Of a stretch of 16,601 bases of DNA, positions 5,180-13,961 are shown piece after piece. The position numbers and the translations under genes are program-made. A model generated the notes under the pieces. The model had not been told where the DNA came from, searched no databases, and saw only the letters and a program-made list of their open reading frames with translations. How positions within the stretch are numbered: the first letter of the stretch is position 1; every line of letters begins with the position of its first letter. Origin of the DNA: a virus; UHGV virus genome UHGV-0088365, one strand, 5' to 3'.

Positions 5180-6013
5180 TCACGAATCTCTCTGACAATT
5201 CAGAAACATAAACGCCCGCTTGTCTGTTAAATCCGTAACATAATACTCTCTCATGCCTGTAGGTTTTATTCTACGAGCATATACAAACTTATGAACTGGT
5301 TGTTTTTCCCCATAACTTACATCAGTCCTAAATTCATCAACCACGCTACCATCTTTTTCAGTTTCCTTTCTCACTAGCTGATTTTCTAATACAGGCTTTG
5401 ATTCGTCCATGCCACTAAAAGCATCCTGACCTGTGCTGTTGCCTCGGTTTCCGCGTGGCAAATCCCATGAAAAATAAGTGCCATAGTCAGTAATCACACG
5501 ATCCCATGTTCCGGAATCCCCCATATAGTTAGAACGCTCCCCCTTGTAAGTTACAGCCACCTTACAGGCATACGTTTCACCATTATTTTTTTTATCATGT
5601 CCAGCCATGCTTGCAGGAGTTGCAGGGGAATTATGAATAGATGCGCTTACATCATCCTGCGTTAATTCCTCAACTGGAGCAAATTCATATATGGGTGTGC
5701 CGAGGCTATTTAAATATAACTTATATCTAACCCTAAGCGCACTTCCATCAGAAAATTCATACGTTCCCAGACATTGGAGCTTATTTTTTTCTCTTATCTC
5801 ATTGATCTGATTATAAGCATCAATTACAGAGATTGCTTCCTGATCGTCCTTCAGCAGTTCATTATAATCATCGATTAACATCTGTCTGGTTTTAGGGGCA
5901 TTACAGTCAATTTTGCTAAAATCATAAGCAAAGGCAAATGTGGGAACAGAGAGAGCAACAACAGTAGCAAGTATTGTTGAGGAACATCTTTTTCCATTTT
6001 TTATAAAAAACAT
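5180..6013 (-). CDS. Secreted or periplasmic protein of unknown function with Sec signal peptide, about 277 aa
   Basis: ORF-track ORF 5180..6091 trimmed to the ATG at 6013 (GGAG 8 nt upstream), giving MFFIKNGKRCSSTILATVVALSVPTFAFA-YDF: basic n-region, hydrophobic core and AFA cleavage-type motif. Mature part is rich in Gly, Tyr and Trp. AT-rich. No family recognised. Confidence 0.7.
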   Translation of the reverse strand: MFFIKNGKRCSSTILATVVALSVPTFAFAYDFSKIDCNAPKTRQMLIDDYNELLKDDQEAISVIDAYNQINEIREKNKLQCLGTYEFSDGSALRVRYKLYLNSLGTPIYEFAPVEELTQDDVSASIHNSPATPASMAGHDKKNNGETYACKVAVTYKGERSNYMGDSGTWDRVITDYGTYFSWDLPRGNRGNSTGQDAFSGMDESKPVLENQLVRKETEKDGSVVDEFRTDVSYGEKQPVHKFVYARRIKPTGMREYYVTDLTDKRAFMFLNCQRDS

Positions 6014-6305
6014 TTCATTAACTCCATACTTTACCATCTTAGCCGCGAGCGCGGTCCCTAAAACCCTTAACTTCACTACACCGTCCTTCATGTAAACAAA
6101 ATGAGGTTTTATGTTATAAAAACAATCAACTTCATCAACATGATTTAGGCCAAGTTTCGGTCAAATAATAAAATCCTCAAAAAGTGGTTGACACTATTCT
6201 GGAAATCACAAACTGCACATAATCCATCGCGCTAACGGCTCCCGTTGAAGGTTCTTTTGACGATTAACTTTCAGCCGAAGCGCGGTAGGGAGTCATAACG
6301 CCAAA

Positions 6306-6333
6306 GCAGGCCGCCATGTGCGGCCTTTTTTTG
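6306..6333 (+). terminator. Intrinsic terminator or attenuator hairpin (GGCCGC-catgt-GCGGCC followed by TTTTTTT) 27 nt upstream of the next start codon
   Basis: Read directly: GC-rich 6-bp stem (7 with the flanking A-T pair), 5-nt loop, 7-T run at 6326-6332. It lies between a TTGACA hexamer at 6188 and the GGAGG/ATG of the 217-aa gene at 6360. Confidence 0.6.
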
Positions 6334-6359
6334 TATCCGTCATCCGTGGAGGAAGGACA

Positions 6360-7013
6360 ATGGAAAAGATCGCAATATTCAGCCTGACCACCAGCAAGCC
6401 TCAAATGCTCACTGCAATACTGAAAGACGGTGCTCTCATTATTAACGAAGTAAAACCCCTTCCCGCGTCAGCATTGGAGCAAAAGCAAAAAATTCCTCCA
6501 GCTATAGCAGCCCTGCGGAAAAGCAAATTTAAGGTACTGGTAGACGAAATTACGCCAACGATCTCCGCTGGCACCGGAGCAAGCCAGGTGACTCTCAAGA
6601 CCCGTCATGCCGATGGCAGAGCAGCAATCATCGTCGGGATGGAAAGATACAGAGAGTTAAAACTCCAGAAGCTATTATCCCTGCCGCAAAATAACAAAGG
6701 TGCTTTCGAAATCCCTGACTCCATCGTTGACACCGAATACAACGGTAACGGAGAAGAAGTCTACCGGGTGAACTGGCAGGATATCAGGCCGGAGCATATT
6801 TTGATGATCCTGTGTTGCTACGCGACCGTATACCACAATGTAGCCAGTGCGGATTACGTAGAGCAGATGACCGGTACAGTCGAGAAAGAGCAAAAAACAG
6901 GCATACTCGCTTCGTTCCTGTCCATTATTGGGCATGAAAAAGTTAAAGCAGGCACCTCCCAGCCAAAGACACTGACTGGGAAAGAAGTTGATGAAGATAC
7001 CGTGATACTTTGA
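6360..7013 (+). CDS. Hypothetical protein, 217 aa
   Basis: ORF-track ORF 6318..7013 trimmed to the ATG at 6360 (MEKIAIFSL...), which has GGAGGAAGG upstream. No family recognised. Confidence 0.7.
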   Translation: MEKIAIFSLTTSKPQMLTAILKDGALIINEVKPLPASALEQKQKIPPAIAALRKSKFKVLVDEITPTISAGTGASQVTLKTRHADGRAAIIVGMERYRELKLQKLLSLPQNNKGAFEIPDSIVDTEYNGNGEEVYRVNWQDIRPEHILMILCCYATVYHNVASADYVEQMTGTVEKEQKTGILASFLSIIGHEKVKAGTSQPKTLTGKEVDEDTVIL

Positions 7014-7148
7014 TCACATTAGTAGCTTTGTTAACTCCCTCAATACCAGGTAGAAGAGTAACAAAAATATTGACGCCAGTATTTGCGTGGTCAATGAAGC
7101 GTTCATAAACAGATCAATTAGCATTAATAATTCGAAGATAACATCCAT
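7014..7148 (-). CDS. Putative small hydrophobic peptide, 44 aa
   Basis: Not in the ORF track. ATG at 7148..7146 with GGAG about 8 nt upstream; translation MDVIFELLMLIDLFMNASLTTQILASIFLLLFYLVLRELTKLLM; its stop abuts the stop of the convergent 217-aa gene. Confidence 0.3.
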   Translation of the reverse strand: MDVIFELLMLIDLFMNASLTTQILASIFLLLFYLVLRELTKLLM

Positions 7149-7341
7149 GTCATTCACTCCGTTTAATTTTTAATCTAATGCCAGCAAATGAAGCTGGCCC
7201 CCGCATAAAGATTAATGAAAGTCACTTGTCACCAGTGAGGGGATTTATGAACCACATCCCCCTGAACTGGTGGCCTGTCTGTTTCTCGCATTTCACACCC
7301 TGCATACAGTTTCCCCCAGGTTATGACTGAGAGGCTTTGTT

Positions 7342-7671
7342 ATGGGCTATAGCAGACTCGACGATAGGTACATTGAAGACGATATTTTTCGTGCGCTGTT
7401 TCACCAGGAAATGATTAAGAGGGTATCGGAGTATCACTCTGATAATTTCCAGTACACGATAAAGATTGATGAAGTATATCGTTCAGACCTTGCAGCCTAC
7501 AGGGCGTATGGCAATGCAGATTTGCGCTGGGTATTCCGGGTGCTGGTGGGCCATGAGTCAGAAATGGAAGAAATGCCCGCAGGGACCACGTTAACTCTTC
7601 CTGATGTGGCATGGCTGAGGAACAAGATCCGTGATTACGCAAGCGCGGAACCGGAGATAGAAAATGCCTGA
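7342..7671 (+). CDS. Hypothetical protein, 109 aa, with weak resemblance to the LysM-like phage tail protein X family
   Basis: ORF-track ORF; its stop overlaps the next start by 8 nt. The segment YGNADLRWVFRVLVGHESEMEEMPAGTTLTLPDV loosely resembles the P2 gpX pattern (...YG...V..VL..N.G......LP.GT.v.LPDV) as I recall it; weak. Confidence 0.6.
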   Translation: MGYSRLDDRYIEDDIFRALFHQEMIKRVSEYHSDNFQYTIKIDEVYRSDLAAYRAYGNADLRWVFRVLVGHESEMEEMPAGTTLTLPDVAWLRNKIRDYASAEPEIENA

Positions 7672-8857
7672 TTTCCTGAAAAACCAGGATGGGCGCTATA
7701 TCACTGACGGCCTGTCCTCTAAGGACTTCACGCGTTTATTCGACCTTATCAGGAAAGAACAAACCCGTAAGCGCCGACAAGCTCACCGGACGCTGACGCC
7801 AGGTAGACTGAGGAACAAATCCGCCGAAGATATTCTCAAGTTAGGGAAGAAAAAAGGCGGCACGTTCTTCACGCGAGACGACCTGAAAGGTTTCGAAAAG
7901 CTACGGAGTAAAACGCGCGAAAAATATGACAGCAAGACGGCTGGCATCACATACGCCCAGCTGGTGGCATCCAGCCAGGCAATCGATATTAAGCGTGCAA
8001 ATAACGCCGTGGATGACGGATCTGGTATCAAAAGAGCTACACCCGTATCTCTTCGCCACAATGTGATTAATATCCGCGTAGAAGCATCGGATATATCCGT
8101 CCACCAGCACCATATCGTCCGGATACGCTTTGAAGAATGGGATCAGATGGTTGATGACATCGCAGAAGACGATAAATCAGCTCTCAAAATCACTAAATCA
8201 CTGTGCGCCGGGCGAGTGTCTTTCGATTGTGACTGTGGTCGTCATCAATACTGGTATCGTTACATCGCCACTGCGGGTAACTTTGCCCTGGCACCGCCAA
8301 AAGAATACGCCTATCCAAAAGTTCGCAACCCGAAGCTGCAAGGCGTCGCCTGTAAACACGTGATCCACTCAATGACGCGGTTACAGTCCGCCAGTTGGCA
8401 AATGAGTATTGCTCGTGCGCTACAAAAGGCTGCAACGCAAATTGCATTTGGTGACGATCGCCGCCGTACAACCAAACACTTCTCAAAAGAAGACGAGAAG
8501 GAGTTTAATCGCAATCGTAGCAGTAAAACGAACGTTGAAGCCGCCAAACGCGAATGGAGGCTCTATCAGAAGCGCCAGGCAGCTTTAAGTACAAAACTGG
8601 CAAAGGACAACGGCAAGATCGACAAACTACGTGACCAATTGACCAAGGCCAGAAAGTTGTCAGATGCACAGAAAAAACGGGCGGCAGCAAAAGAAGCGGC
8701 CTTGCAACGTGAGAAACAGAAAAACAAGGAGCTTCAGCAACGCCTTGCCGATCAGTTCGCACTGAAGAAGCAGGCGTTCATTGATGCGCTTGTCATGGCT
8801 GGAACACCACCAGCACAAGCTGAAAAAATGTTCATGGAGTATGTAAAAAAAGCATAA
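7664..8857 (+). CDS. Basic protein with SWIM-type zinc finger (CxC...CxH) and long C-terminal K/R/Q/A-rich coiled coil, 397 aa
   Basis: ORF-track ORF. FDCDCGRHQYWY...(about 40 aa)...GVACKHVIHS fits the SWIM CxCxnCxH signature; residues about 280-397 are predicted coiled coil (e.g. KRAAAKEAALQREKQKNKELQQRLADQFALKK). Confidence 0.75.
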   Translation: MPDFLKNQDGRYITDGLSSKDFTRLFDLIRKEQTRKRRQAHRTLTPGRLRNKSAEDILKLGKKKGGTFFTRDDLKGFEKLRSKTREKYDSKTAGITYAQLVASSQAIDIKRANNAVDDGSGIKRATPVSLRHNVINIRVEASDISVHQHHIVRIRFEEWDQMVDDIAEDDKSALKITKSLCAGRVSFDCDCGRHQYWYRYIATAGNFALAPPKEYAYPKVRNPKLQGVACKHVIHSMTRLQSASWQMSIARALQKAATQIAFGDDRRRTTKHFSKEDEKEFNRNRSSKTNVEAAKREWRLYQKRQAALSTKLAKDNGKIDKLRDQLTKARKLSDAQKKRAAAKEAALQREKQKNKELQQRLADQFALKKQAFIDALVMAGTPPAQAEKMFMEYVKKA

Positions 8858-8866
8858 ACCACACAT

Positions 8867-8900
8867 AGCCTAGTAGTTTATGCTGGGCTTTCATTTTTTT
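8867..8900 (+). terminator. Intrinsic terminator after the SWIM-protein gene
   Basis: Stem AGCCTAG / CTGGGCT (7 bp with one G-U pair), 9-nt loop, followed by TTCATTTTTTT. The stop of the convergent minus-strand gene (8891) lies inside the T-run. Confidence 0.5.
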
Positions 8901-9619
8901 GAAAGATCAATTCCAGTATTATCAAACAAACTGGAAATATCAGACACCAATTTATTAAAATGCTTGTCATCATTATAGAATGATGTGCTTTTTATAGCGA
9001 CTATAAAATCACATAAATCTTGCGGAGATTCAATGCTAACCCCCTTATTTTTATATAGTTCAATAATACTGCCAACATCAGTATGCAATAGTTTTATCGC
9101 GCCACAAATTTCTCGCTGTTTCGTAACCAAGTCATTAAGTTTATTTTCATTTTCATCTAAGATTTGTTTTGAATATTTAGCGTCATTGGTTGCTTGATTT
9201 AACTTTGTTTTCTTTCTTTGCAATTCTATTCTTTTATCATAATCAGCAACTTCATCTAAATATCTTATTTCAGTGTATAATTTACTTGTTAGCTTAGATA
9301 TCTTCAGTGTGAGAACAGGAGCTAACACAGATGCAAATACTCCATAAATAAATGGGATTACAACGTGATAAACCCACGGGGATACAATCCAATTATCAAT
9401 GAACGGGACATTACCACCAACAGAAACAATAGATAATGTATATAGGATGTCGTCCTTTGACTTTAATATAATTAAAATATCCTTCCAGTTAAAAATTAGA
9501 AAAGAAATGACAACATATGCAAAAACCTTGTTAAATATTTTATCTTTTATTATTTCAGAAAATGATTTTAGTTCTGTTTCATTTATAGACGGATTATCTT
9601 TAACTTTTTCTGACATCAT
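8891..9619 (-). CDS. AT-rich membrane protein (two predicted TM helices) with coiled-coil-rich C-terminal domain, 242 aa; candidate abortive-infection or exclusion-type effector
   Basis: ORF-track ORF; ATGATG start at 9619 with AGGA 7 nt upstream. Predicted TM segments FAYVVISFLIFNW and WVYHVVIPFIYGVFASVLAPVLTL; K/E/N-rich helical C-terminus. Markedly AT-rich. No family recognised. Confidence 0.75.
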   Translation of the reverse strand: MMSEKVKDNPSINETELKSFSEIIKDKIFNKVFAYVVISFLIFNWKDILIILKSKDDILYTLSIVSVGGNVPFIDNWIVSPWVYHVVIPFIYGVFASVLAPVLTLKISKLTSKLYTEIRYLDEVADYDKRIELQRKKTKLNQATNDAKYSKQILDENENKLNDLVTKQREICGAIKLLHTDVGSIIELYKNKGVSIESPQDLCDFIVAIKSTSFYNDDKHFNKLVSDISSLFDNTGIDLSKK

Positions 9620-9640
9620 AGCTTATCCTGATTACTTTTA

Positions 9641-9841
9641 TTATGGATAGTTAAAAGATTCAACAGGTGATGGTGGTTGAATTGGGTAATGTTTCTTCTC
9701 GTACTCCTCAATGAGAAGACTCATAACCTCAAAGAAATCACCTTCCGGAGTATTCATTTCCGGTTCGTTATCGAACATCGGTTCGACCGCACGCAGTGCG
9801 GCCTCATAATCTTGTTCTGTACGGATAGGTTTAATGTTCAT
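9641..9841 (-). CDS. Small protein resembling only the N-terminal (non-HTH) domain of YgjM/HigA-type antitoxins, 66 aa
   Basis: ORF-track ORF; MNIKPIRTEQDYEAALRAVEPMFDNEPEMNTPEGDFFEVMSLLIEEYEKKHYPI follows the pattern of the N-terminal domain of E. coli K-12 HigA (...NEEQYTQALELVDHLL.NDPENPLLDLV...ITAWEE...) as I recall it, but there is no HTH domain. No Shine-Dalgarno sequence is evident. Confidence 0.5.
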   Translation of the reverse strand: MNIKPIRTEQDYEAALRAVEPMFDNEPEMNTPEGDFFEVMSLLIEEYEKKHYPIQPPSPVESFNYP

Positions 9842-9854
9842 TAATTACAAAGGA

Positions 9855-9885
9855 AAGCCCACTTGCTAAGTGGGCTTTTTGTATG
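9855..9885. terminator. Hairpin AAAGCCCACTT-gct-AAGTGGGCTTT followed by TTGTATGTGTTTT; terminator, strongest in the plus orientation
   Basis: Perfect 11-bp stem with 3-nt loop between the higA stop (9898) and the 66-aa ORF start (9841). The T-run is on the plus strand; the minus orientation has only TTTCCTTT. Confidence 0.5.
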
Positions 9886-9897
9886 TGTTTTACTATA

Positions 9898-10236
9898 TCA
9901 GGCTGCTTTTTTATTCAGGTTCCGCTGAGAAATAAATTTTTCAGCAGTATTGATACGACTTAACTCTTCCTGAACGCGCATATCATTTTCGACTTCCCAC
10001 AGATCTACTGCGGTCTGAAGATTAATCCAAAAATCTACAGAAGTATCGAATGCTTTTGCCAGGCGATATGCCATATCCATCGTTAGCTTACGATTGTTAT
10101 TAACAAGAGCACTTACGGTGTTACGATGAACATGAAGTATTTCTGCTAACTCGTTGATCTTCAGCTCTAACGGCTCCAGGTATTCGTACAGCAGGATATC
10201 ACCTACGGTCGTCGGTTTTCTGGTTGCCTGTTTCAT
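9898..10236 (-). CDS. higA: HigA-family antitoxin (XRE-type HTH), 112 aa
   Basis: ORF-track ORF; PTTVGDILLYEYLEPLELKINELAEILHVHRNTVSALVNNNRKLTMDMAYRLAKAFDTSVDFWINLQTAVDLW matches the HigA/VapI HTH antitoxin pattern; it lies downstream of a HigB-like toxin gene (toxin-first order typical of higBA). Confidence 0.8.
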   Translation of the reverse strand: MKQATRKPTTVGDILLYEYLEPLELKINELAEILHVHRNTVSALVNNNRKLTMDMAYRLAKAFDTSVDFWINLQTAVDLWEVENDMRVQEELSRINTAEKFISQRNLNKKAA

Positions 10237-10306
10237 TTTTTGCCCTTACTAGCGTGCGTATTAAGTGGACTCTGGTCAGAACCCGGTCCGTAACCGGGTA
10301 TCTGTT

Positions 10307-10609
10307 TTAGTATTTGTGAGGGTCGAGATACAAGTCCTCGGCCTTTCCGTTAACCCACTTAAAAATTAACCTATATTGCTTATTCACCCTTACTGATGAA
10401 TAGCCATTTAGCTTCCCTGACAGTTCCTCATACCGATTACCTGGTGGTGATCTTAAATCCTTACAGGTAGTTGCGGCATTGATAATGTCCAACTTCCGTG
10501 ACAATGTCATATGAATATCAGGAGGTATCTTTCTATGTGGTGTTGAAAATTCAAAAAAATCATCAAGCCACGCATCCCTGAAATCCTTTATGTTAATTTT
10601 TTTGGTCAT
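10307..10609 (-). CDS. higB: HigB-like toxin (plasmid-maintenance killer protein, RelE/ParE superfamily), 100 aa
   Basis: ORF-track ORF; C-terminal half GNRYEELSGKLNGYSSVRVNKQYRLIFKWVNGKAEDLYLDPHKY follows the HigB pattern (...G.R.G.YS.RVN..YRL.F...NG.A..L...DYH) as I recall it; upstream GGAGGA. Confidence 0.8.
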   Translation of the reverse strand: MTKKINIKDFRDAWLDDFFEFSTPHRKIPPDIHMTLSRKLDIINAATTCKDLRSPPGNRYEELSGKLNGYSSVRVNKQYRLIFKWVNGKAEDLYLDPHKY

Positions 10610-10654: not shown

Positions 10655-10682
10655 GCGCACCGTTGCACTGTGCGCAAGTGCA
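10655..10682. promoter_or_regulatory. Nested palindromes (GCGCAC...GTGCGC and TGCACT-N7-AGTGCA) in the divergent promoter region between higB and the rightward operon; putative operator
   Basis: Read directly in GCGCACCGTTGCACTGTGCGCAAGTGCA; toxin-antitoxin promoters are typically autoregulated through palindromic operators. Confidence 0.4.
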
Positions 10683-10771
10683 TTTTATGAATTCCCCCTC
10701 CTTCATCCAAAATCACAATCTCCAGAAAATCTTCCTTTCGATACCTGACAGATCGACCTTTGAGGATGCTT

Positions 10772-11563
10772 ATGGGCCGTTTTGACGAATGGTTTGCTGA
10801 CGATGCAAACCTGGCAAGTAAGGAGTCAGAACATGACAGCACGCAGAGAGAAACGCCAGCGCCGATTGAAGCGAATGCAGGAGGCGCGCCGGAACATGGC
10901 AATACCGGTTCGGATTCATTCAGCATTCTGGAAGAGCAACCCGCCGCCCAAGCTGATAGCCATGATAATTTTGCTGATAGCAACGGTGGCCTTACTCCGG
11001 ATGCTGGCGAATCAGATATAGCCATACTTCCATCTTCCCTGGCTGGCAGAGAACCGACTCCACAGTTAAAAGCACGCTATAACGGGCATAAAGCCTTTAA
11101 CGACCAAATCCGCGCAGACTGGATGCTGATTATTGAATCCAGCCCAGACGCGTTTCAGGCTCTCTTATATCGACCAGATGTTGGCACATATGGGGTAGTC
11201 AGCGACGAAACAGGAGAAGAGTCATTCACTGAACTGGATAACAACCAACGCGAACTGACTTACCAGGAACCTGAAATCGTTTATGTGCTGGATAACCCTG
11301 ACGGGCGTGACTCTTTCCATGCGATTGACGCAGACGGTGAGCAGGATGGCTTAACCGATGATGTTCTGATTCTGCGTATTGCAGCAAATAACGTCCCCGT
11401 CGGCTCAATTCTTGAATGGAATGAAGAGATGGTAAACGGCGTAGCGCGCCGCTGGTGGTACGTGCACCGTATTTTTAGCTACGGCACACAGCATGTTGGT
11501 TCGCTTTACTACTGCATACCTGCCAGGAATTTTGATACGACTCAAAACGGAGTGATCGAATGA
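10772..11563 (+). CDS. Hypothetical protein with acidic, low-complexity N-terminal half, 263 aa
   Basis: ORF-track ORF 10760..11563 trimmed to the ATG at 10772 (GAGGA 5 nt upstream); ATGA overlap with the next gene. No family recognised. Confidence 0.7.
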   Translation: MGRFDEWFADDANLASKESEHDSTQRETPAPIEANAGGAPEHGNTGSDSFSILEEQPAAQADSHDNFADSNGGLTPDAGESDIAILPSSLAGREPTPQLKARYNGHKAFNDQIRADWMLIIESSPDAFQALLYRPDVGTYGVVSDETGEESFTELDNNQRELTYQEPEIVYVLDNPDGRDSFHAIDADGEQDGLTDDVLILRIAANNVPVGSILEWNEEMVNGVARRWWYVHRIFSYGTQHVGSLYYCIPARNFDTTQNGVIE

Positions 11564-12327
11564 CTTCAAATAAAACCCTCCTGGCGCGAACAGGTGAATG
11601 GCAAACCTCACGCACAGGAAAATTCCAGACCACGGGCTTTGAAAACGTGGATAACGCGTTTGCGACGCTAATCAGCAACATTTTTTCTGATATCTTACTG
11701 GTGGCCCCCGCGCCGGAAGAAAAACGCTTTGCGTCATTCCTGAATCGTCCACCAGCAGAGCGTGTCTATGTGGCCCGTTTCGACAATGCGATCGAGTTTC
11801 TTAAAGCAGTTCGTCGCGCAAATGCCGGGCAAGGGAGAAAACCTGAAAACCAGAACATTAACCGGGATGCTCTCCCCCTGGTCAATATCTCACGCACTAT
11901 GGATATCAATTATATCAACGATGATCAGCAGATTGACCGCAAAAAAGTAGCCAGTTTTTGCGAACCGGATACCGGAATGCCTTTAGCAGAACTGGAATAC
12001 ACCCAGGCCATTCTGACGTATGACGTTACGTTAATGGCAACTGATAAAGCGACCATGAGTCTGATGTGTAATTCGCTGGGCGCACGGCTTCGCCTGATGA
12101 CAGGTACACAATTTGAAGCAACCACTCACCTTGTTCGTGTCCCGGTCCCGCTGATTTGCTCGATACAGGATGCCAAAGAAGTCGGCTTTACGGATGTTTC
12201 AGCACCAATTGGAGAAGAGCGTATTTATGCCACACAAGCGCCGATAAGTGTGATTGCAGACGTGATCACAGCATGGGAGTTGGACGCAAAACGTATTATT
12301 ACCGAAACCTCGATATCTATGGGGTGA
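11560..12327 (+). CDS. Hypothetical protein, 255 aa
   Basis: ORF-track ORF; ATG at 11560 with GGAG upstream; translationally coupled to both neighbours. No family recognised. Confidence 0.7.
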   Translation: MTSNKTLLARTGEWQTSRTGKFQTTGFENVDNAFATLISNIFSDILLVAPAPEEKRFASFLNRPPAERVYVARFDNAIEFLKAVRRANAGQGRKPENQNINRDALPLVNISRTMDINYINDDQQIDRKKVASFCEPDTGMPLAELEYTQAILTYDVTLMATDKATMSLMCNSLGARLRLMTGTQFEATTHLVRVPVPLICSIQDAKEVGFTDVSAPIGEERIYATQAPISVIADVITAWELDAKRIITETSISMG

Positions 12328-12330
12328 TAA

Positions 12331-13311
12331 GTGGCCCAGGAGTTACAACAATATTTTCTACAGTCAGTGCTCATTAACGATAACAAAGTGCCACGAGACT
12401 GGATTTTTACCGCAGTATATGTAGAAAAAACCAGCCTCAAAGCCCCTTTGCTAAAACTGGAAATTCATGACGCTACCGGCACCGTAATTGATGACTGGAA
12501 AGCCAAATACGGTGCATCGCTGGTGGCTGAAATGGGCGATCCAAACGGTAATGCAGGCACTTTTAAAACAGATTTCTTTGTTACGTCTGCAATGCTGGCT
12601 GGTGATGTTGTTACCGTTATTGCTGTCAGTGAAGACGTGCGCAGGTTTAAGATCCCCTCCCCGCGCACAAATTTACATACCAACAAAACACCAGACGCTA
12701 TATTCAAGGCATATTCCGGCAAACTTAAAATTACCAGCAGCGTGCTAAAACGCGCAGTTACATATCATCTGAATGCCGGTGACAAACCGTCAAAAATGCT
12801 TTCGGAGATAGCGCGAGACAAAGGTGCATTGTGTTGGGTATGTCGGGGGGAATTTAACTTTTATACCCTGGCTGATCTGATGAAGCAAACGCCATCATTT
12901 ACCTACGAGGGGAATAACCCTAAAGCAGAATACACTTTGTCCAAAATGCGCCTACTCCAACAGGAACATGCGACAACAGCAAAGAATCAATATCGTTTTG
13001 TTGGGTATTCCATGACCGATGGCTACGTCGAATATGGCGATAGCTCACTCCCAGTGCGTTATATATCCGACTCTGATATGGAAACTCTTCGCAATATGCA
13101 GCTGTCTCTCGTCCCCAAAATGGATATAGAAGTCGCAGGCAATCCTGATATAAAACCGGGGATGGTAATAGAGATTATCGTATACCGCTATGACCAGGAA
13201 AACCGCATTGATGAATCAATGCCCCGTAAGCTGATAGTAAAAAATGTTGCGCACTTTGAGGACCGAGTAGGCTACACAACACGAATGATATTGGGAGTGC
13301 CTAACAAATGA
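12331..13311 (+). CDS. Hypothetical protein, 326 aa (GTG start); possibly a baseplate-hub-like protein given its position before the spike-like gene
   Basis: ORF-track ORF; GTG start 3 nt after the upstream stop; ATGA overlap with the downstream spike-like gene. The hub assignment is from gene order only, not from recognised sequence motifs. Confidence 0.65.
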   Translation: MAQELQQYFLQSVLINDNKVPRDWIFTAVYVEKTSLKAPLLKLEIHDATGTVIDDWKAKYGASLVAEMGDPNGNAGTFKTDFFVTSAMLAGDVVTVIAVSEDVRRFKIPSPRTNLHTNKTPDAIFKAYSGKLKITSSVLKRAVTYHLNAGDKPSKMLSEIARDKGALCWVCRGEFNFYTLADLMKQTPSFTYEGNNPKAEYTLSKMRLLQQEHATTAKNQYRFVGYSMTDGYVEYGDSSLPVRYISDSDMETLRNMQLSLVPKMDIEVAGNPDIKPGMVIEIIVYRYDQENRIDESMPRKLIVKNVAHFEDRVGYTTRMILGVPNK

Positions 13312-13961
13312 AGCGTAGAGCACAAATTGTTGGAACTGTGCACCCAGCAGGGCTTATGCGTGCTCAAGTCCGTGTTTTACCTGACTGGAATGGCGTTCCT
13401 GATGACGATCTACCCTGGGCGGAATACCTGTTACCCATCGGGAACGCTTTTGTACCTACAGTCAAAGGTGACCTGGTCTGGGTAGAGTTTCCTTATTTAG
13501 ATGTTAACGGTCGAATAGACACCAGACGCCCAATGATAGTTGGCGCGGCTCAGGATGCGCCTGGCGGAGTTCCAAACGTCGCGCCGGAGGCGTCAGGCAA
13601 TGGTAGCGGCTGGACGCCGCCGGAAGTAGATGGAGCACCTCCCCGCCCCCAAATCTCAGCAACGAAAGACTTCGTTATTCACCGCAACAATATTCTTGAA
13701 GTACGAACTGCTGGTGGCGGCTATGAAATTGCCAATACGGCAGCAGGCTCAAGGATTGGCATGAATGAGTCCGGGCAGATATATATCATTGGTCCGGCTG
13801 ATGTAATCGTGAATGCAGGAGGGAGTGTTAACGTCAAATCAGCCAACAACATCAATGTTAATGGGGAAAATATTGCTGTCACCGCTAACGGGGACATAGC
13901 TTTCAAGGCAGGGGGAACCTTTCAGGCCACTGCTGGCAACTTCGATTTCAAGAAAGGATAG
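13308..13961 (+). CDS. Baseplate-spike-like protein (gpV/gp45-type N-terminal OB-fold pattern plus Gly-rich beta-helix-like C-terminus), 217 aa
   Basis: ORF-track ORF. N-terminus IVGTV...RAQVRV...LPWAEYL...GDLVWVEF resembles the Phage_base_V pattern (compared from memory with Mu gp45 and P2 gpV); C-terminus has short repeats GGSVNVKSANNINVNGENIAVTANGDIAFKAGGTF typical of spike beta-helices. Confidence 0.6.
   Translation: MKRRAQIVGTVHPAGLMRAQVRVLPDWNGVPDDDLPWAEYLLPIGNAFVPTVKGDLVWVEFPYLDVNGRIDTRRPMIVGAAQDAPGGVPNVAPEASGNGSGWTPPEVDGAPPRPQISATKDFVIHRNNILEVRTAGGGYEIANTAAGSRIGMNESGQIYIIGPADVIVNAGGSVNVKSANNINVNGENIAVTANGDIAFKAGGTFQATAGNFDFKKG

Follow-up and report, generated by a model that had tools for sequence, protein, structure and literature searches.

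In phage P1, the late promoter LP26 is followed by genes 26, 25, 7, 24, 6, and 5 as one operon, with a gap of only 3 nt between genes 25 and 7. The first of these products has been placed by cryo-electron microscopy (cryo-EM): gp26 is present in six copies as a "plug" that lies between gp6, the hub protein, and the wedge proteins PmgA, gp16, and BplA (PMC12810830; bioRxiv 10.1101/2025.07.21.665459), and it is related to T4 gp53 (PMC12810830; bioRxiv 10.1101/2025.07.21.665459; PMC9024508). Gene 25 is annotated "tail stability", and its mutant phenotype is cited here through such annotations. In the P1 virion proteome, gp25 was represented by two peptides covering 8.4% of the protein, which passes the two-peptide threshold; HHpred gave no role for it, and the authors left undecided whether it is a structural component or helps assembly as a cofactor (PMC9024508). 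It is one of the few late morphogenesis proteins of P1 that still await both a position in the virion and a mechanism. Here, we analyzed UHGV-0088365, a viral stretch of 16,601 nucleotides (the window), which carries a gene pair encoding a 109-amino-acid (aa) gp26-like protein and a 397-aa gp25-like protein. The comparison provides gp25 with a domain map: a predicted SWIM-type zinc finger with four invariant ligands and an insert, a uniformly basic charge, and a variable coiled coil.

Positions 6000–10500 of the window are 99% identical to E. coli plasmids of approximately 90 kb, and positions 7000–9000 are 98.2% identical to phage D6; by sequence, the window is a phage-D6-type, P1-like plasmid prophage. 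The D6 record describes orf75 as "similar to P1 gene 26" and orf74 as "similar to P1 gene 25". The 397-aa protein shares 99.5% identity with D6 orf74 and, over residues 1–334, 57% with P1 gp25 (tblastn, E 3e-113), and it matches phrog_1722 over residues 2–396 (E 4e-197). The 109-aa protein matches phrog_1269, "baseplate wedge subunit" (E 2e-36), and the solved P1 Gp26 chain (PDB 9ay5_S / 9vzk; phmmer, E 1e-16, residues 4–99). The two genes are almost certainly orthologues of P1 genes 26 and 25. A first-pass annotation, which was made from the letters of the window and its open reading frames (ORFs), could place neither protein in a known family; both belong to one, P1 gp26/phrog_1269 and P1 gp25/phrog_1722, respectively. 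The locus is already known at the level of genes, and it is an ordinary one, consisting of the D6 copies of two P1 tail genes that have been known genetically for decades, with the structure of one product solved. What is new here is modest: the SWIM-type fold with its long insert, the invariant ligands, the basic character of gp25, the size and hosts of its family, the strength of the 26–25 pairing, and a cargo site between genes 25 and 7.

The SWIM CxC...CxH finger that the first-pass annotation had seen in the 397-aa protein, and whose loss in homologues it had named as a sign against it, proved to be invariant in the family. An exhaustive profile search (E ≤ 0.001) yielded 649 representative clusters, found in enterobacterial plasmid prophages of the P1/D6 type and in prophages of other beta- and gammaproteobacteria. 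The motif is present in all retrieved homologues of at least 237 aa (261/261), with a spacer of 36–44 residues, and the eight homologues that do not have it are all fragments of 230 aa or less. The four putative ligands are likewise invariant in an alignment of 21 homologues with identity down to 44%, and their conservation is 100% among 136 representatives sharing no more than 50% identity with one another. In those representatives, G94, E214, P218, N222, G227, and K231 are as conserved as the ligands themselves. In the window protein, CDC (C189, C191) and CKH (C230, H232) flank a 38-residue insert, GRHQYWYRY...PKxRNPxLxGVACKH, which is rich in Arg, Lys, Trp, and Tyr. The stretch from CxC to CxH is the best-conserved part of the whole family protein.

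Structure prediction pointed in the same direction. The full-length AlphaFold model was of moderate quality (predicted local distance difference test score, pLDDT, 75), and the core was therefore re-modelled with a deeper alignment. With 63 diverse sequences, the model of residues 91–262 reached a pLDDT of 95.5 and a predicted template modelling score of 0.91. In this model, CxC ends a strand (185–189) and CxH begins a helix (231–239). The best structural match of the core was ZSWIM8, a similarity of fold in keeping with a SWIM domain. Foldseek against predicted viral structures (BFVD) returned seven matches at E ≤ 0.001, two of them named as SWIM-type domain proteins (phages Motura and BcepSauron). 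With several phage proteins matching the core fold and some already bearing the name, SWIM-type domains are less rare in phage proteins than the first-pass annotation had supposed. The full-length model had no PDB match by Foldseek at E ≤ 0.001.

Sequence profiles were less forthcoming. The Pfam SWIM family (PF04434) matched neither the window protein nor its core fragments, even at E ≤ 10, and this counts against the assignment. PF04434 was the most recurrent Pfam match among homologues (9/63, all below threshold, best E 0.01). Scans of the gp25-like protein against Pfam and NCBIfam yielded nothing meaningful, and single-sequence and profile searches of PDB gave only a chance pectin-lyase match and coiled-coil noise. 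A SWIM-like zinc-binding fold in gp25 is nevertheless very probable in our judgment, and we conclude from the conserved motif and the model that the finger is of the SWIM type, with Cys2-Cys-His ligands, a long conserved insert, and predicted zinc binding. In our literature searches, no paper describing a SWIM finger in a tail or virion protein of a phage came up, and the source names within the family are "phage tail protein" or "tail stability protein" only; the finger in gp25 is apparently unreported so far.

Around this finger, gp25 appears to be built as a basic helical N-terminus, an alpha/beta core ending in the SWIM finger, a variable coiled coil, and a terminal helical module, with a total mass of approximately 45 kDa. 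CxC lies at a rather constant distance from the N-terminus (median 189 residues), and the part after CxH ranges from 93 to 288 residues across the family, with a charged helix followed by one or two small helical modules. The long coiled coil rich in Lys and Arg noted in the first pass is also predicted here: residues 291–378 form a helix in one heptad register, with 65% hydrophobic residues at a/d positions versus 31% elsewhere. The net charge of this helix is +13, and region 263–385 holds 33 K/R versus 17 D/E. Its sequence is not conserved across the family. The terminal module is marked by G380 and A386, both invariant among close homologues; it is doubled in some distant homologues (P0152, P0193), and in one family member it gives a weak match to a SAP domain (E 0.003), which we regard as a hint. 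Basic charge extends over the whole protein. The isoelectric point (pI) of the window protein is 10.07, and all 134 representatives for which it was calculated have a pI above 9 (median 10.0), with N-terminal, core, and C-terminal parts each basic.

The partner protein is better understood. The first-pass annotation had noticed only a faint gpX/LysM-like pattern in the 109-aa protein because the corresponding Pfam matches lie below threshold: Phage_tail_X (PF05489) scored 13.2 bits against a cut-off of 22 (E 0.067), and Phage_gp53 (PF11246) scored 13.6 bits against a cut-off of 21 (E 0.053). The pattern was well seen, however, given the firm match to P1 Gp26. As judged by this homology, the D6-type gp26 is the plug that fastens the baseplate wedge ring to the central hub.

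In the window, the gp25-like gene sits directly after the gp26 gene of a late tail/baseplate operon, and homologues of P1 genes 7, 24, 6, and 5 follow at 10772–13958, past a block of minus-strand genes. The upstream neighbor of gene 26 is a homologue of mat, a maturation control gene in D6. A first scan of viral contigs gave close relatives only; a scan of genome contigs then provided 81 distant prophage loci from beta- and gammaproteobacteria. Of 79 distant loci, 64 have a gp26-like ORF immediately before the gp25-like gene, at stop-to-start distances of about -30 to +9 nt, and four more have one nearby. The two genes also co-occur in the same 21 cultured phage records, plus Acinetobacter phage ABMM1. 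Downstream, phrog_4597 follows the gp25-like gene directly in 67/81 distant loci, and after it come the major capsid gene (42 loci) and the sheath gene (37 loci). Variant loci have, after the gp25-like gene, either a Sit-like transglycosylase/tape-measure gene (cf. Xanthomonas phage Rb1) or one further gene and then a PmgG-like tube-baseplate junction gene. Every context in which gp25 was found is a virion-morphogenesis cluster of contractile-tailed phages. Both genes of the window are thus essentially ordinary late tail-morphogenesis genes and form no accessory module. The first-pass annotation had considered that homology to a tape-measure or scaffold protein, together with conserved synteny, would make the 397-aa protein an ordinary structural gene; a known tail-gene family and conserved synteny were indeed found, a tape-measure identity was not, and a scaffold identity is unlikely. 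As a tape measure, gp25 was rejected, with no match to a tape-measure PHROG or Pfam family; D6 has a separate 1260-aa Sit homologue (orf40) for that role.

In three betaproteobacterial prophages (L109, L110, and L115, at approximately 9205–10002), an extra 265-aa ORF stands between the gp26-like and gp25-like genes. In L109 and L110, the gp26-like domain lies at the C-terminal end of an open stretch of approximately 256 codons. The downstream gene phrog_4597 encodes an acidic protein of approximately 170 aa (median pI 4.6) with a conserved NRRDDL at its end. It was unmatched in Pfam, NCBIfam, and PDB, and no homologue is present in D6 or in the P1 segment examined. We considered it as a diverged form of the P1 stopper gp7 and rejected this, since BLASTP found nothing and hhalign gave a probability of 0.4.

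We propose that translational coupling of the two genes would keep the synthesis of gp25 in step with that of gp26, and that gp25 would act as a zinc-stabilized tail assembly or stability factor, low in copy or transient, at the hub of the baseplate or where the tube is initiated. A partner would be bound by the SWIM core through its invariant insert, and the basic coiled coil would touch something acidic, for example the tube lumen, the tape measure, or DNA. In this role, gp25 may seat or lock gp26. Without it, tails would form yet be unstable, in line with the P1 annotation, and they would probably contract prematurely. A position at the hub or tube-initiation region is favored because of the conserved, coupled 26–25 pairing, the P1 tail annotation, and the lumen and hub neighbors in variant loci, and a transient, flexible, or low-copy state is suggested because gp25 is missing from the cryo-EM models and its proteomic signal is weak. 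Overall, we regard a role for gp25 in tail or baseplate assembly and stability, coupled to gp26, as an evenly balanced call. Identity, synteny, motif conservation, and the predicted fold are what we observed, and from these zinc binding, an interaction of gp25 with gp26 or the hub, and the site of action are inferred.

Several points weigh against this proposal. gp25 is neither modelled nor mentioned in either P1 cryo-EM study, which together cover the tail, baseplate, and neck (PMC12810830; bioRxiv 10.1101/2025.07.21.665459), and a fixed, symmetric structural position is therefore unlikely. CRISPR interference (CRISPRi) on P1 gene 25 cut plating to 0.11, only about 10-fold, and the gene was scored as non-essential (PMC10695390). 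The other P1 genes annotated with "tail stability" proved to code for a stopper (gp7) and a terminator (gp24), which sit at the end of the tail nearest the head (PMC12810830), and the phrog_4597 and major capsid genes found downstream in the majority of distant prophages would fit a head or neck role equally well. Pairing of an acidic gp26 with the basic gp25 was tried as a sign of direct binding and rejected, as it is not conserved (median pI of gp26-like proteins, 6.2). Finally, the uniformly basic charge could reflect binding to nucleic acid as readily as binding to protein, and it cannot separate the two. In the same dCas12a CRISPRi screen, gene 26 gave a plating value of 0.12 and was scored as non-essential, and genes 7 and 5 gave values below 1e-5 (PMC10695390). 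A protein with a known structural position, gp26, thus received a "non-essential" score in that screen. If the CRISPRi effect is polar, these values suggest an internal promoter before gene 7 or a weak knock-down at the start of the operon.

The strongest rival explanation, which we consider possible though on the unlikely side, is that gp25 is a low-copy virion protein located where symmetric cryo-EM would not resolve it, in the lumen of the tail tube beside the tape measure Sit or in the neck channel, where its basic SWIM core and coiled coil would bind the DNA end. Such a protein could leave with the DNA at infection and might work as a pilot or bind DNA ends, perhaps in the manner of Mu gpN or T4 gp2; this, too, we hold as a tentative possibility. 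The strongly basic character of every region in all 134 representatives and the Arg, Lys, Trp, and Tyr of the invariant insert would suit contact with DNA, and the SAP-like hint in one C-terminal module points the same way. On the other hand, no DNA-binding fold was recognized in gp25, and SWIM domains also serve protein–protein contacts, as in ZSWIM8. In purified virions, gp25 matched the hexameric stopper gp7 in peptide count (two each), with the six-copy gp26 and PmgA undetected (PMC9024508), although two peptides may be carry-over contamination. The cryo-EM maps do not resolve Sit or other flexible parts (PMC12810830), and the gp25-like gene directly adjoins the Sit-like transglycosylase gene in some prophages; however, neither cryo-EM study reported unassigned lumen density of such a protein. 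A broader version of this idea, distinctly unlikely in our estimate, is that the gp25 family is an unrecognized class of zinc-finger virion proteins of P1-type myophages, with a basic SWIM fold and a place in the tail lumen or neck. If this were true, gp25 would attach to the leading end of the DNA or to the tape measure, keep the tail metastably extended, and be ejected into the host with the DNA, which would account together for the "tail stability" annotation, the faint signal in the virion proteome, and the invisibility in symmetric cryo-EM maps.

The downstream genes of the distant prophages bring in another explanation, which we judge quite improbable: gp25 as a head- or neck-side morphogenetic protein, scaffold-like or involved in head completion, that docks by its C-terminal module and affects the tail indirectly. 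A long coiled coil with a small terminal helical module is typical of scaffolding proteins such as P22 gp8. Only phrog_4597 separates the gp25-like gene from the capsid gene in the distant prophages, whereas in P1 and D6 the gp25-like gene is far from the major capsid gene 23. The next gene in P1, gene 7, codes for the head-tail stopper (PMC12810830), yet phrog_4597, at the corresponding place in the distant loci, has no homology to gp7. The upstream partner is a baseplate protein, and the P1 annotation describes a tail phenotype and not a head phenotype. The scaffold role that the first-pass annotation had thought conceivable is also made unlikely by P1 itself, in which the scaffold is hypothesized to be the cleaved N-terminus of the major capsid protein, with DarA (PMC12810830). 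Very improbable, finally, is a non-structural gp25 that regulates late expression or DNA maturation as a DNA-binding zinc-finger protein and is carried as a passenger in a tail operon. The basic charge, the SWIM finger, and a coiled coil by which the protein could dimerize would suit such a role, and the gene pair adjoins mat in D6. However, adjacency to mat is specific to D6, the gene always lies within virion-morphogenesis clusters, P1 already has Lpa as its late activator and D6 has an Lpa homologue, and gp25 peptides are present in purified virions (PMC9024508).

The first-pass annotation had described the two genes as a self-contained unit with an 8-nt overlap and a terminator of their own. 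The pair, the overlap, and the hairpin are present (Table 1): the second ATG is at 7664 and the first TGA at 7669–7671, an arrangement which, together with the ribosome-binding site, suggests translational coupling. The self-containment, though, is a derived state, caused by the insertion of cargo behind gene 25, before gene 7, in the lineage of D6. We surveyed this junction in 76 P1/D6-type viral contigs that have both genes 26 and 25. Gene 7 abuts gene 25 in 41 of the 76, and all of these lineages are less than 70% identical to D6. All D6-type contigs (at least 95% identity) have an insert of variable size, approximately 0.5–3 kb, between genes 25 and 7. The junction is either empty or filled with inserts of differing size, and it therefore resembles a cargo hot spot. 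We flag it as a variable cargo-insertion site in phage-plasmids, which in this window holds a HigBA toxin-antitoxin pair.

Table 1. Features of the gp26–gp25 locus and its surroundings, with window coordinates unless a locus is named.
Feature	Position	Strand	Remarks
Inverted-repeat motif	7223-7251	+	CACT-N8-AGTG-N5-ATTTATGAA; 91 nt upstream of gene 26
gp26-like gene	7342-7671	+	109 aa; D6 orf75; LysM/T4-gp53-like baseplate "plug"
Ribosome-binding site (GGAG) for gp25-like gene	7653-7656	+	within 3' end of gene 26; 7 nt before ATG
gp25-like gene	7664-8857	+	397 aa; D6 orf74; orthologue of P1 gp25 "tail stability"
Conserved alpha/beta core	7934-8449 (residues 91-262)	+	three-stranded sheet and helices running into SWIM-like finger
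Putative zinc ligands	C189 (8228-8230), C191 (8234-8236), C230 (8351-8353), H232 (8357-8359)	+	
Basic coiled-coil-like helix	8534-8797 (residues 291-378)	+	single continuous helix (AlphaFold)
Short C-terminal helical module	8798-8854	+	helix 383-396 after invariant G380 (predicted)
Intrinsic-terminator-like hairpin and T-run	8867-8900	+	ends 26-25 transcript in D6 lineage (predicted)
Cargo block	8891-10609	-	between tail genes 25 and 7; GC content 33-39%
242-aa ORF in cargo block		-	phrog_8191
Helix-turn-helix (HTH) gene remnant in cargo block	9641-9841	-	
HigA antitoxin in cargo block	9898-10236	-	
RelE/ParE-family toxin in cargo block	10307-10609	-	HigBA pair
Second inverted-repeat copy	10666-10691	+	upstream of gene 7
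phrog_4597 examples	L004 5699-6247; L005 8884-9387; 67 of loci L087-L166		

The terminator-like hairpin (8867–8889) has a 9-bp stem followed by TTCATTTTTTT and a folding energy of -14.7 kcal/mol (z = -3.2 versus shuffles). A terminator of this kind is absent after gene 25 in P1, where the next gene begins immediately downstream. Two copies of an inverted repeat precede genes 26 and 7, with a pooled pattern of CACT-N7/8-AGTG-N1/5-ATTT(T)ATGAA. In phage D6 the motif occurs at these two sites only, it is otherwise confined to D6-type loci, and it was not found in diverged lineages or in P1. A chance estimate for the motif would be circular because the pattern was defined from the same two sites. 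These repeats may be lineage-specific promoter or operator elements, made or retained when the operon was split. The idea of a general late promoter was rejected, with no other copies in D6 and none in diverged lineages. Two further hairpins were seen in the window. One, at 6308–6326, is GC-rich, with a 7-bp stem that includes six GC pairs, and is followed by TTTTTTT a short way before the annotated mat start (~6360); it has the form of a terminator for the plus-strand genes preceding mat. The other, at 9852–9880 between the HTH remnant and higA, is strong, with a stem of 11–13 bp and T-runs on both strands, and resembles a bidirectional terminator.

The described systems nearest to this locus differ in how closely they can be followed. 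P1 gp25 has the same place after gene 26, the same length class, and the same invariant CxC...CxH as the window protein, whereas the C-terminal ~60 residues and the coiled-coil sequence diverge, and the D6-lineage gene is separated from 7-24-6-5 by a terminator and the cargo insert. For gp26, the likeness consists of sequence homology, gene position, and similar size, although identity to the P1 protein is only 40.6% and the window protein does not have the 16-residue N-terminal extension of P1 gp26. A link to the LysM-like baseplate proteins T4 gp53 and P2 gpX rests on the P1 structural papers and not on our Pfam tests. The SWIM zinc finger usually has a spacer of about 6–25 residues between CxC and CxH. 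The gp25 spacer of 36–44 residues is longer than this and is itself highly conserved, and the finger occurs here in a protein of virion morphogenesis that also carries a long basic coiled coil. For the proposed role, the hub assembly cofactors gp51 and gp26 of T4, an analogy suggested for the P1 orphan proteins (PMC9024508), provide the nearest parallel. Like gp25 as we picture it, they are needed for proper tails and leave at most traces in the finished particle, and the resemblance is one of analogy only.

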